Of a stretch of DNA of 64,000 nt, positions 10,447-61,066 are shown piece by piece. Location: assembly GCA_951406725.2 (NCBI GenBank), contig OX597818.1, positions 73,780,001 through 73,844,000 of the forward strand, given 5' to 3'. Both the position numbers and the translations under genes were made by a program. Each line of letters begins with the position of its first letter. The first letter of the stretch is position 1. The notes below the pieces were generated by a model. It did not search any database. It saw only the letters and a list, made by a program, of their open reading frames with translations, and was not told the DNA's origin. This DNA comes from Octopus vulgaris. Taxonomy: Eukaryota.

Positions 10447-13128
10447 AGCAATAATAATTCTCTAAAAGGGATATAGACAGTAACTGCTCGATAACATAAG
10501 GGACTAAAGCCATCTGAATATGGCTAGGGACAGGGCAGGGTGGTGGGGGTGTTACTGTTGCATTTAGCCCCAGGCGAACATCGACGTCACCAGAAAGGCT
10601 CGACACCGTCACGGTGCCCTAAACCTGCAAAGGGAGGTAATTCCCCGATGAAGCGGAAACCACACACGGACCATGGTTTCAAGGTGTATTGCCTATCATC
10701 GGCGTGTGGTAGGCCTCCGCTTCCTCGACGAATTCTCACTATGCAGGATTTCTTATATAGATTTTCAAGCAAAATACATTTGCTGATTTCGAAAATCTGT
10801 TCGAAAGCAATAATAATTCTCTAAAAGGGATATAGACAGTAACTGCTCGATAACATAAGGGACTAAAGCCATCTGAATATGGCTAGGGACAGGGCAGGGT
10901 GGTGGGGGTGTTACTGTTGCATTTAGCCCCAGGCGAACATCGACGTCACCAGAAAGGCTCGACACCGTCACGGTGCCCTAAACCTGCAAAGGGAGGTAAT
11001 TCCCCGATGAAGCGGAAACCACACACGGACCATGGTTTCAAGGTGTATTGCCTATCATCGGCGTGTGGTAGGCCTCCGCTTCCTCGACGAATTCTCACTA
11101 TGCAGGATTTCTTATATAGATTTTCGAGCAAAATACATTTGCTGATTTCGAAAATCTGTTCGAAAGCAATAATAATTCTCTAAAAGGGATATAGACAGTA
11201 ACTGCTCGATAACATAAGGGACTAAAGCCATCTGAATATGGCTAGGGACAGGGCAGGGTGGTGGGGGTGTTACTGTTGCATTTAGCCCCAGGCGAACATC
11301 GACGTCACCAGAAAGGCTCGACACCGTCACGGTGCCCTAAACCTGCAAAGGGAGGTAATTCCCCGATGAAGCGGAAACCACACACGGACCATGGTTTCAA
11401 GGTGTATTGCCTATCATCGGCGTGTGGTAGGCCTCCGCTTCCTCGACGAATTCTCACTATGCAGGATTTCTTATATAGATTTTCAAGCAAAATACATTTG
11501 CTGATTTCGAAAATCTGTTCGAAAGCAATAATAATTCTCTAAAAGGGATATAGACAGTAACTGCTCGATAACATAAGGGACTAAAGCCATCTGAATATGG
11601 CTAGGGACAGGGCAGGGTGGTGGGGGTGTTACTGTTGCATTTAGCCCCAGGCGAACATCGACGTCACCAGAAAGGCTCGACACCGTCACGGTGCCCTAAA
11701 CCTGCAAAGGGAGGTAATTCCCCGATGAAGCGGAAACCACACACGGACCATGGTTTCAAGGTGTATTGCCTATCATCGGCGTGTGGTAGGCCTCCGCTTC
11801 CTCGACGAATTCTCACTATGCAGGATTTCTTATATAGATTTTCGAGCAAAATACATTTGCTGATTTCGAAAATCTGTTCGAAAGCAATAATAATTCTCTA
11901 AAAGGGATATAGACAGTAACTGCTCGATAACATAAGGGACTAAAGCCATCTGAATATGGCTAGGGACAGGGCAGGGTGGTGGGGGTGTTACTGTTGCATT
12001 TAGCCCCAGGCGAACATCGACGTCACCAGAAAGGCTCGACACCGTCACGGTGCCCTAAACCTGCAAAGGGAGGTAATTCCCCGATGAAGCGGAAACCACA
12101 CACGGACCATGGTTTCAAGGTGTATTGCCTATCATCGGCGTGTGGTAGGCCTCCGCTTCCTCGACGAATTCTCACTATGCAGGATTTCTTATATAGATTT
12201 TCAAGCAAAATACATTTGCTGATTTCGAAAATCTGTTCGAAAGCAATAATAATTCTCTAAAAGGGATATAGACAGTAACTGCTCGATAACATAAGGGACT
12301 AAAGCCATCTGAATATGGCTAGGGACAGGGCAGGGTGGTGGGGGTGTTACTGTTGCATTTAGCCCCAGGCGAACATCGACGTCACCAGAAAGGCTCGACA
12401 CCGTCACGGTGCCCTAAACCTGCAAAGGGAGGTAATTCCCCGATGAAGCGGAAACCACACACGGACCATGGTTTCAAGGTGTATTGCCTATCATCGGCGT
12501 GTGGTAGGCCTCCGCTTCCTCGACGAATTCTCACTATGCAGGATTTCTTATATAGATTTTCAAGCAAAATACATTTGCTGATTTCGAAAATCTGTTCGAA
12601 AGCAATAATAATTCTCTAAAAGGGATATAGACAGTAACTGCTCGATAACATAAGGGACTAAAGCCATCTGAATATGGCTAGGGACAGGGCAGGGTGGTGG
12701 GGGTGTTACTGTTGCATTTAGCCCCAGGCGAACATCGACGTCACCAGAAAGGCTCGACACCGTCACGGTGCCCTAAACCTGCAAAGGGAGGTAATTCCCC
12801 GATGAAGCGGAAACCACACACGGACCATGGTTTCAAGGTGTATTGCCTATCATCGGCGTGTGGTAGGCCTCCGCTTCCTCGACGAATTCTCACTATGCAG
12901 GATTTCTTATATAGATTTTCAAGCAAAATACATTTGCTGATTTCGAAAATCTGTTCGAAAGCAATAATAATTCTCTAAAAGGGATATAGACAGTAACTGC
13001 TCGATAACATAAGGGACTAAAGCCATCTGAATATGGCTAGGGACAGGGCAGGGTGGTGGGGGTGTTACTGTTGCATTTAGCCCCAGGCGAACATCGACGT
13101 CACCAGAAAGGCTCGACACCGTCACGGT
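10447..13128 (-). repeat. Tandem array, 7 full + 1 partial copies of a 359 bp hammerhead-containing unit (retrozyme-like)
   Basis: Units start at 10447, 10806, 11165, 11524, 11883, 12242, 12601 and 12960. They appear identical except one A/G site (G at 11126 and 11844). Left flank is (TA)n. Confidence 0.97.
10659..10710 (-). ncRNA. Type I hammerhead ribozyme (variant core CCGAUGA), repeated every 359 bp, 7 copies
   Basis: Minus strand: accacacg CCGATGA t-agg-caataca-cct-t GAAA CCATGG TC cgtgtgtggt. Stem I cacacg/cgtgtg is extended by gaagcgga/tccgcttc, and stem III is the palindrome CCATGG. Predicted cut after GUC, between 10669 and 10668. Confidence 0.8.
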
Positions 13129-13276
13129 ACCTCCCTTTGCAGGTTTAGGGCACCGTGACGGTGTCGAGCCTTTCTGGTGACGTCGATGTTCGCCTGGGGC
13201 TAAATGCAACAGTAACACCCCCACCACCCTGCCCTGTCCCTAGCCATATTCAGATGGCTTTAGTCCCTTATGTTAT
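13128..13276 (+). repeat. Inverted partial copy of the 359 bp unit capping the array
   Basis: 149 bp reverse complement of unit positions 10491-10639, followed by (TA)n. Confidence 0.95.
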
Positions 13277-13436
13277 ATATATATATATATATATATATAT
13301 ATATATATATATATCACAATCAAGGAACGGCCATAATAGGCCATTCACCCACTAGAAATAACAGCCAAAGCTTCAACCGCAAAATAACATTAATTCCGTA
13401 AACCAGGAGAAAATTAAAAAAACATTTACCCTGTAA

Positions 13437-13541
13437 TTTCTTATACGATGCACCGTTTCATCTACTGTTTAATGGTAAACTAACCTGATTAAATTAAATC
13501 AAGCCAATCTTCCATAGGCCCTTAGATTCGTCAGTAAGAAA
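13437..13541 (-). ncRNA. Inverted copy of the 13836-13940 hammerhead
   Basis: Reverse complement lying within the left arm of the fold-back. Confidence 0.88.
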
Positions 13542-58609: not shown

Positions 58610-60340
58610 CATGATTCACTGGTCCCAATCACGAACTATACGATCATTATATTGATGGCTGTATCGGTGTGACCTCGCTCTCCCTGGAAAAACTAGTCTC
58701 CGTTCTCTCTTTTGTCCAATCTTTCCATTCTGCCCTTGAATTCTTCTGCACCGTTTCCAACACTTCTGTCACCTTTCTCGACATTTCGGTCAACATACAC
58801 AACTCCGCTCTCACTACCTTTATCCACTACAAACAAAGCGACTCACATTCATACCTTCACTTCTCCTCCTCATAACCTACCCACACCAAGCTTTCTATCC
58901 CCTAATCCGGATTCCTCCGTCTATGCAGGCTCTGCAATGACAACCATGACTTTGTAACTCAGTCTCAACTCATGGCTCACAATTTCATCCTTCGTGGATA
59001 TCTCCTCACCACTACCCGTACCGCCATTCCCAGAGCAAGTTCCGTGGACCATGAAACTGCTCTTTCTTCTCACACTCACCCGGCCGTTGCCCGTCTCCCA
59101 TTTTCCCTCACCTACTACCCCTCCACCTTGCCCCTCCAACGCACCATTCCGAGCCTTCTGGCGACTCAAGTCCGAAACCTCAACTTCGTACATTTTCCAC
59201 AACCTACCACTTCTCTCCTTCAAACGAACCCACAACCTATAAGACATCATGGCACACAATTTTTTCCCTAATCCCACCTCCCAGCTTGGCTCGTTCCTCT
59301 GCTCGCACCCACGCTGCAGCACTCCTCCTCACAAGTACCCATCGTCCCTCTCCTGTTCTTTCCATTCTTCTCTGAACGTCAGTCAAGCAGGACGTCCCTT
59401 GGCTGACTAGTTCGCGGAGCACCTCCGAGACATTAGACTCGGCAATGACGCCCCAGTCTTGCGCCATTTCCGCTCTACCTGTCATTAATTGCAACACCTG
59501 TCTGTGTTCAGATTGTCTTTGAACAGGTGCCATCCGGAACCCCCTTCGCCGTGAACAGGAAATAATCTTCTCTCTTCGCTCCTTTGTGTCACATGGACTC
59601 CACTGCCCTCCCCCTTCATCTGACTCCCCTCCTCTCCTTCCTTCATCTCACACCTTTTTCTCTTCGCTCTTACCCACTCTCTCCTTTCATCGATACCCAC
59701 TCCATCCATACCCCACCCCTACATCCTACACCCACATCCCCCATTCCTACGCCCACATACTCACCCCAAACCTACATCCCACCTCACATCCTACACCCAA
59801 ACCTCACATCACCAAATCCCACACTCACATCCCCACACACCAACAAAGCCACATCAAACCACACACCAACACACCACCACACCACATCACACCACTCCGC
59901 ACACACTAGGACTAACCGTTTCCCAGCAACCAGTGCATAAACCACATACCCACACATTACAGACGCACGCACACACATACATGCACATTCACACGTCAAA
60001 GTCACCAGCCCCTCTCCTTCGGCACACACTCATATATACATATATACATTTATATATACATATATAACCCTTCGGGTTGGGCTCACCAGTACATCAATAT
60101 CACCCCTTTTTCCTAACTCTTCTGTCTAACTACTTTTGTCCAACCAGTTGCCATGGTTGACCGTTAGATCCAAACTTTTCATTGTTTATTCTCTCTGTTT
60201 ATTTCCTCGTGTTCCTTTCTGTTGAAGACCGTAGGATTGAAACGTAAAATATTTTGTCCCCTTCTCAAACATTAAACTAATACACCTGCTTCTTGTTTAC
60301 CTATATTCGTCGTTTGTTTTTCTTTTGGAAATTTCAACTA
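58610..60340 (+). mobile_element. 5'-truncated Penelope-like element (Neptune-like RT C-terminus, GIY-YIG relic, pLTR)
   Basis: YIDGCIG, FH.AL.F, VTFLDISV, HYK.SDSHSYL.FSS, FLRLCRLC, GRPLAD*FAEHLRDIR, then a C/A-rich 3' region and a degenerate minimal hammerhead CTGTTGA-agaccgtaggatt-GAAACGTA at 60219-60246. Ends in (TA)n. Confidence 0.82.
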
Positions 60341-60402
60341 TATATATATATATATATATATATATATATATATATATATATATATATATATATATATATT
60401 AT

Positions 60403-61066
60403 CTAAGTCTCTCTAAAGGAGACTAAGGCAGCATTACAGGATATCAATAGTTATCGCCAAGCTAACATTACAGTCCAGGACTATAGGACGAATGCTATCG
60501 CTGATTAGCTCCAAGAGGCCATCGCTTCTAGCAATCTATGTGACATCCAGACCAGCAAGGTGAGGCGGCTGACCCCTCCTGTTCGAAGGTTATAATGGAA
60601 ACAGGTTCGTGCGTCACATAACTAGCTAGAGGCGATGACCTCTTGGAACTAATCAACGGCAGCATTCGTCCTATGTTCATGGACTGCCTTGTTAGCTTGG
60701 CGATAACTATTAATATCCAGTACTGCTGCCATACTCTCCTTTAGAAAGACTTAGAAATATTAATATTTCTATTTTTGAAAACCAGTATATGTATTCCACT
60801 GAATTTAGGTAAATAATCCTTCGAACAGACGGTCAGTAGTGACGCCTGTTGAGTTCGGCTGCTCTACATTCATAAGGGGTAAATAGCCCGAAACTAGTCT
60901 GTACATGCCAGACAAGCAAAGCGGCTGACTTCCCCTGTTCGAAAGTTATAATGGACACAGGTTCGTGTGTCACATAGCTAGTTAGAGGCGATGGCCTCTT
61001 GGAGCTAACCAACGGCAACATTCGTCCTATTTTCCTGGACTGCCATGTTAGCTTGGTGGTAACTAT
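60403..61066 (+). mobile_element. About 356 bp-unit element (relative of the 359 bp unit) with inverted 5' arm
   Basis: 60403-60546 is inverted versus 60613-60756; direct repeat 60565-60710 / 60921-61066. Decayed hammerhead taca TTCATAA gggg taaata gccc GAAA CTAG TC tgta at 60865-60903. Confidence 0.8.

Follow-up and report, generated by a model that had tools for sequence, protein, structure and literature searches.

Head-to-head insertions of retrozyme-type repeats in Octopus vulgaris and their probable origin by paired priming with a Penelope-like element protein

Several repeat families that bear a predicted hammerhead ribozyme carry inverted partial copies of themselves in a single stretch of the Octopus vulgaris genome, which raises the question of how such a layout arises. 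The stretch, hereafter the window, spans 64,000 nucleotides of contig OX597818.1 (assembly GCA_951406725.2, positions 73,780,001 to 73,844,000, forward strand). An original prediction, made from the sequence alone, had placed the inverted copy 5' of the ribozyme-sense strand in every case and had suggested a common integration route driven by Penelope-like elements (PLEs), for which it cited inverted 5' partial copies as established. PLEs are indeed known to carry inverted copies in head-to-head arrangement and a tail on one side only (PMC8557442, PMC3846280), and PMC8557442 calls the origin of their tandem and inverted insertions unresolved. We conclude, with a probability of about three in four, that the insertions are pairs of 5'-truncated copies joined head to head, with each of two fixed sites serving as the end of one copy, and that they were made by a PLE protein acting in trans and priming on both cut strands of the target.

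Five repeat families with inverted arms in the window

A masked self-comparison of the window returned inverted pairs at all five loci named in the original prediction, as well as at two further loci near positions 829 and 6603, and mapping of family units placed the five close to where they had been reported. They belong to five families (A to E), where at least three had been proposed, and only B and D are weakly alike (E 4e-5). The tandem units measure 359 bp in A, 488 bp in B, 506 bp in C, 472 bp in D, and 361 bp in E; they form arrays of up to ~15 copies scattered over many contigs, and no Pfam-type open reading frame (ORF) was seen in the units. Each family has two fixed 3' ends, one short (S) and one long (L), and all five window loci carry the pair.

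10447-13131, minus strand: family A long arm of 7.5 tandem 359-bp units, with its L end abutting (TA)n
Seven motifs, the first at 10669-10702, minus strand: type I hammerheads predicted by descriptor in the family A long arm
13128-13276, plus strand: family A second arm, 149 bp and 100% identical, with its S end (44 nt before L) abutting (TA)n
13313-13613, minus strand: family B arm with S end; predicted hammerhead copy at 13444-13534
13612-14169, plus strand: family B arm with L end, 1.15 copies of the 488-bp unit; predicted hammerhead with extended stem II at 13843-13933
About 32919-33311, minus strand: family C arm with L end, spanning a unit junction; predicted hammerhead at 33207-33250
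33309-33820, plus strand: family C arm with S end, 506-bp unit; hammerhead degenerate
42409-42605, minus strand: family D arm with S end; truncation point within the predicted hammerhead
42596-42871, plus strand: family D arm with L end, 472-bp unit; 3' half of the predicted hammerhead at 42615-42626
About 60400-60545, minus strand: family E arm with L end abutting (TA)n
60543-61066, plus strand: family E arm with S end, 1.4 copies of the 361-bp unit; degenerate C3U/G8A hammerhead at 60869-60899

Families A and B share one (TA)n tract at window 13276-13313, with their insertions 37 bp apart.

A strict CTGANGA/short-stem descriptor missed most families, and a relaxed descriptor was used instead. 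It predicts one type I hammerhead per A-E reference unit, on the strand that had been named originally, and finds no hammerhead of similar score on the opposite strand. Variants include a U4C change in the core of A, a stem II domain of 68 nt in B, a long stem II in D, and C3U/G8A in E; within the window, the D copy is represented by the 3' half of the motif only, and the motif has degenerated in both the C sense copy and the E copy. Each predicted hammerhead has a short, palindromic helix III, as PMC4209133 describes for metazoan hammerheads, so self-cleavage would need a dimeric fold. Rfam returned no hammerhead match for family A (10450-11170), and in a scan of the window hammerheads were absent from the best 150 of 235 matches, which were dominated by microsatellite miRNA matches; the hammerhead identity of A-E is therefore descriptor-based. 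On this footing, the A-E repeats are likely retrozyme-type noncoding units.

Polarity of the arms across the genome

Each family served as a query against the genome (2.8 Gb in 227 contigs). The best matches were taken as A-E loci, with 40 candidates scored per search, and whole loci were fetched for A and B. Hits were chained over gaps of at most 60 bp, and L057 and some other loci count as single-armed since the distance between their arms exceeds 60 bp. Where several loci came from a single array, the duplicates were removed before counting: L001-L030 and L070-L099, for which whole-locus fetches were substituted, and L170, L194, L268, L275, L284, L289, L244-L250, L326, and L348.

Two arms are present at 96 of the 168 A-E loci (A 30/40, B 26/40, C 18/30, D 9/28, E 13/30), and all 96 pairs are joined 5'-to-5', with none joined 3'-to-3'. 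Without the window's own five loci, the count is 91 of 91. The five window loci taken alone are weak evidence (two-sided p 0.06), and it is the genome sample that makes the polarity decisive. As a control that was not anchored on A-E, a search with the hammerhead pattern gave 34 matches; 30 were fetched, corresponding to 28 distinct loci, and at 15 of these an inverted arm is clearly present 5' of the motif. Three weak 5' arms (L334, L343, L346) were left out of this count, and two apparent 3' arms proved to be unrelated flanking repeats. Inversions in the A-E and control loci thus do not split evenly between the two sides but all lie 5', in keeping with the polarity first proposed from the window.

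At 91 of 96 loci, the two arms overlap by 30 nt or more of unit sequence, which bears out the earlier claim that, unlike in L1, the inverted arm duplicates sequence of the sense part. The long-ended arm is the longer of the two at 14 of 28 A loci and 18 of 24 B loci. Both arms behave as equivalent 5'-truncated copies, and calling one the inverted copy and the other the sense part is therefore arbitrary. The loci at 829 and 6603 had been described as consistent with the same layout; both are head-to-head, whereas the motif at 829 is rearranged and no hammerhead was found at 6603.

One short and one long end per insertion

The S and L ends are separated by 44 nt in A, 104 nt in B, 88 nt in C, ~81 nt in D, and 56 nt in E, and their distances past the predicted cut are 131-191 and 222-279 nt. 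No common sequence or fold is evident at these sites except that they end in T or AT. Among the two-armed A-E loci that could be classified, 74 of 76 combine one S with one L end (p 8e-20 against 50:50), the other two being one L/L and one S/S.

The same rule could arise if both strands were primed at one start site and the tail were then cut from one arm during endonuclease resolution, a step that has been suggested for the tail in PMC8557442. Such trimming accounts for the polarity and the one-of-each pairing equally well. We nonetheless consider it unlikely: two reverse transcriptase (RT) start sites bounding the tail have been mapped in vitro (PMC11167929), and the single-arm A-E loci carry either end (30 L, 31 S, and 11 other ends).

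5' ends, junctions, and template

The 5' ends of paired arms are mutually independent, falling within 15 nt of each other at 7 of 96 loci where chance predicts 7.05. This count bears on a self-priming account, put forward for Penelope repeats that stand head to head and have palindromic junctions, in which the cDNA (or antisense RNA, PMC3846280) snaps back and is copied into a palindrome. Near-symmetric loci of the kind it calls for do exist (L147, L146, the window D locus, and L287 and L294 of the P1 family described below), yet near-symmetric joints occur at chance frequency (0 of 30 in A), both outer ends are fixed element ends, and the arms match different array monomers in L031, L138, L147, and L160. 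We therefore regard fold-back as quite improbable here, and as a general route it is largely refuted. A fixed register between the arms was also rejected, as the five informative loci differ: L044 uses the same monomer, L031 and L147 an upstream one, and L138 and L160 a downstream one.

L1-type twin priming by a long interspersed element (LINE) protein, with the second primer annealing just upstream of the first cDNA's end, would produce the same polarity and microhomology joints (PMC11702581, PMC2912911), and a LINE RT relic does lie within the window. L1 offsets, however, measure 1-10 bp in 32 of 32 cases, unlike the A-E loci, where the 5' end of one arm comes that close to the start of its partner (10 nt or less) in only 4 of 89 cases against 8.7 by chance. 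That adjacency count refutes twin priming for A-E. The overlap of the arms, the fixed and internal position of both starts, and the lack of poly(A) count against it as well, and we leave it hardly any probability.

Joints in A and B show either 1-5 nt of microhomology, above chance, or short inserts. Microhomology of at least 1 nt is present at 18 of 27 joints in A (null 44%, p 0.014) and at 15 of 15 in B (p 5e-6). Inserts occur at 3/30 joints in A, 11/26 in B, and 13/21 in P1, and several resemble copies of nearby sequence. Both flanks are (TA)n at 49 of 56 loci (A 26/30, B 23/26), a pattern that is weaker in the old families. Where the flanks are not simple sequence, target duplications of ~9-13 bp were found at 3 of 17 loci, compared with 5 of 272 mismatched pairs.

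These features also bear on whether the pairs could be fold-back artifacts of assembly or library preparation, or later rearrangements of microsatellite-flanked repeats. The young arms are 99-100% identical, as an artifact would have it, and the window junctions at 13128 and 13613 were unbridged among the sequencing-run contigs listed. Old families with arms of only 77-91% identity obey the same rule, however, and alternate ends at fixed positions, target duplications, and inserts at the joint are not what artifacts produce. Contigs of four runs also contain other left-arm-to-right-arm joints, at different breakpoints and at depths of 43-207 (15 of 34 listed), compared with a family depth of 1e5-1e6. 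We give next to no weight to an artifactual origin.

The 5' ends are not enriched at the predicted hammerhead cut, with 5 of 192 lying no more than 3 nt from it against 3.2 expected, and 62 of 112 A/B arms traverse at least two predicted cut sites. From the end positions, the lack of cut-site enrichment, and this read-through, we infer that the template was an uncleaved multimer or circle that was primed internally. Divergence between paired arms (0.0026 in A, 0.0043 in B) is below that between arms from separate loci (0.0037 and 0.0133, respectively; permutation p 2e-4), and this, together with shared monomer variants, suggests that both arms derive from one source; at L044, a monomer with the same four changes stands at equal index in both arms. 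Among the 53 A/B loci with at least four copies, 37 are uniform or have singleton changes only and 16 are mosaic, several of these (L031, L145, and L163) without a period. A monomer circle therefore cannot be the sole template, barring later exchange, and we rejected it as the exclusive one; the data fit a circle or a linear multimer. The "multimeric or circular RNA" first proposed is thus retained in both its forms, with the qualification that it was uncleaved and its cut sites were read through.

A candidate autonomous element, P1

The candidate autonomous PLE relics that had been suspected in the window are present, as a truncated copy of a family that we call P1 and as an older broken PLE.

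25708-28090, minus strand: P1 copy, a single 5'-truncated arm with the GIY-YIG end of the ORF (27450-28082), the 3' untranslated region (UTR), and an L end abutting (TA)n
Core at 25948, minus strand: type I hammerhead predicted by descriptor in the 3' UTR of the P1 copy
15044-17936, minus strand: older broken PLE, a partial tandem with a GIY-YIG piece (17520-17936) and then RT pieces (15044-16094)

P1 is a young family: its copies are numerous and nearly identical, and it has open frames of ~980 codons. We assign it, with modest protein family support, as a putative endonuclease-positive (EN+) PLE whose single ORF would encode an RT and, at the C terminus, a GIY-YIG domain. The GIY-YIG match of the window piece (E 0.0016) falls below the Pfam cut-off, the whole protein has no Pfam hit, and a PDB sequence search with the RT gave 0 hits; Atlas look-alikes of the protein (0.95-0.98) carry HTH_animal in 20-100% of members, GIY-YIG in 26-50%, and RVT_1 in 18% in one cluster. 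The RT motifs were recognized by eye. In the ORF of one copy (L292 3526-6465), RT and GIY-YIG are separated by a long stretch rich in asparagine, as in rotifer Penelope (PMC3846280).

The footprint of P1 resembles that of the noncoding families. It has two 3' ends ~120 nt apart, at 41 and 161 nt past the predicted cut, and the hammerhead in the pseudo-long terminal repeat (pLTR), the partial tandem, and the inverted copy are all present. Two arms were found at 21 of 30 loci, eight of which were picked because the listing showed two opposite matches; all 21 pairs are head-to-head, and the three with both ends in view are S+L.

Other coding relics in the window are a LINE-type RT, not of PLE type, at 18603-20043 on the minus strand (RVT_1, E 5e-26) and a PIF1-like helicase, probably Helitron-derived, at 40156-41161 on the minus strand (E 2e-28). 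Short two-copy tandem repeats lie at 63090-63357, 18222-18420, and 26099-26382 (periods 133, 100, and 135), the last within the P1 3' UTR.

Families F and G and related repeats

The loci near 829 and 6603 define two further families, and the window also holds an older relative of B.

820-885, minus strand, and 890-1095, plus strand: family F arms (locus 829), with a rearranged hammerhead-like motif and a predicted cut after 948
6142-6596, minus strand, and 6607-6691, plus strand: family G arms (locus 6603), tRNA-derived 319-bp tandem unit
36503-36983, plus strand: older single-arm relative of family B (70%), with its L end abutting (TA)n

The motif of F (window 925-999) has its strand order rearranged, opening after the CUGANGA segment, and is present in all 18 loci but in none of 200 shuffles; Rfam reported nothing relevant for 830-1100. 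Noncircular hammerhead permutations are published (PMC10085705). Two arms were found at 2 of 18 F loci, both head-to-head. One F copy forms an 832-bp tandem array together with flanking DNA (L243-L250), and a second, weaker match to the rearranged descriptor lies at window 7850-7910 on the minus strand.

The tRNA origin of G was recognized by ARAGORN at a relaxed threshold, and two descriptors found no hammerhead in it. G has two fixed ends ~63 nt apart, and 7 of 23 loci are two-armed, all head-to-head (examples within L254-L278); four of these are S+L, one is S/S, and two have one end elsewhere. In L260, an insert with terminal inverted repeats occupies 1010-1422, between tail-to-tail G copies.

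Further degenerate hammerhead-like cores occur in the window at 22628-22660 (plus strand), 35819 (plus), and 20213 (minus). The core at 22628 is similar to the motifs of the family to which L324 and L343 belong, and 20202-20347 and 35696-35830 belong to the same repeat family.

Proposed mechanism of paired priming

In the reading that we favor, a PLE dimer would nick both strands of AT-rich DNA, and the two target 3' ends would prime at different internal sites, one at L and one at S, on an uncleaved multimeric (or circular) RNA from a single source. Both cDNAs would halt at unrelated points and be fused by host end-joining, and if one of the two primings fails, the product would be a single arm that ends at S or at L. 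This reading predicts that the start site differs between the two DNA strands, which the existing in vitro PLE assay could check. Head-to-head arms would follow from any reaction in which cDNA is primed from both target 3' ends; two PLE primings fit because the starts are fixed and alternate, the stops are independent, the junctions appear end-joined, and target duplications occur. The Anolis PLE protein, a predicted dimer, cleaves and extends both strands, prefers uncleaved RNA, and starts internally at two sites bounding the tail (PMC11167929). The common PLE-driven route suggested originally thus gains support from the layout, the fixed ends and tail, the (TA)n targets, and P1, whereas template switching, offered as part of it, is disfavored relative to priming on the other strand.

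Several points weigh against paired priming by a PLE. The census loci are best hits and not a random sample, the fixed sites and their tolerances (10-16 nt) were set from the data that they classify, and in 20 of the 96 two-armed A-E loci one end or both ends fall outside the fixed sites. Target duplications are seen in only the 3 of 17 scorable loci, microhomology is not enriched at P1 joints (5/8, p 0.32), and the variants shared between arms could be explained by later gene conversion. The G locus L260 holds a nonadjacent pair in tail-to-tail orientation, separated by 412 bp; no other pair of this kind was seen. P1 was rejected as the partner of A-G, which show no sequence link to its 3' UTR, and its ends lie closer to the predicted cut than those of A-E (41/161 vs 131-191/222-279 nt); weak D-like hits (E 2e-4) lie beside 2 of 12 older PLE loci, these and P1 being the PLEs sampled. 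Finally, the start sites of the Anolis protein in vitro do not differ between the strands (PMC11167929), a result that gives no reason to expect one of each.

A broader claim, on which we come down slightly on the doubtful side, is that PLE integration is an obligatorily asymmetric double target-primed reaction in which the dimer assigns one RNA start site to each strand. Any small RNA offering both start sites could then ride, so at least seven unrelated noncoding families, the tRNA-derived G included, would be PLE parasites, and the ribozyme would have no role in integration.

Comparison with known systems

The insertions described here share with EN+ PLEs the head-to-head arms, partial tandems, a tail at one end, and (TA)n or AT-rich targets; type I hammerheads, internal start sites, and occasional target duplications extend the likeness. 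In contrast to EN+ PLEs, A-G encode no protein, and the tail is longer, at 44-104 nt in A-E and ~120 nt in P1 versus 30-40 nt in known EN+ PLEs. The published descriptions of EN+ PLEs speak of a one-sided tail, whereas the pairing of one short with one long end is counted here and is near-absolute. L1 5' inversions (PMC11702581, PMC2912911) resemble A-E in that both target ends are primed, the copies are head-to-head, and the junction is end-joined with microhomology.

Metazoan non-long terminal repeat retrozymes resemble A-E in that their tandem units are noncoding, measure 360-510 bp, and bear a type I hammerhead with a helix III that is palindromic, as well as in being dispersed as monomers to multimers and co-occurring with PLEs. 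F carries a rearranged form of the hammerhead, and G, in which none was found, falls outside the retrozymes on this point. Mobilization of retrozymes by PLEs was proposed in PMC7229834, and bioRxiv 10.64898/2026.07.22.740005 bases its case for it on distribution and on pLTR similarity; the word "inverted" has 0 uses in the former and none in the latter from abstract to discussion. We found neither the two-ended inverted footprint on retrozymes nor the one-of-each rule in the open-access literature searched, which leaves subscription papers outside.

The retrozyme papers thus argue from co-occurrence and pLTR similarity, whereas the argument here is drawn from an integration footprint. That footprint argues against the published self-priming account of head-to-head arms. 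Because the insertions are young and abundant, it can be counted, and the link that it makes between retrozyme-type repeats and the PLE route is one of mechanism, not of co-occurrence.

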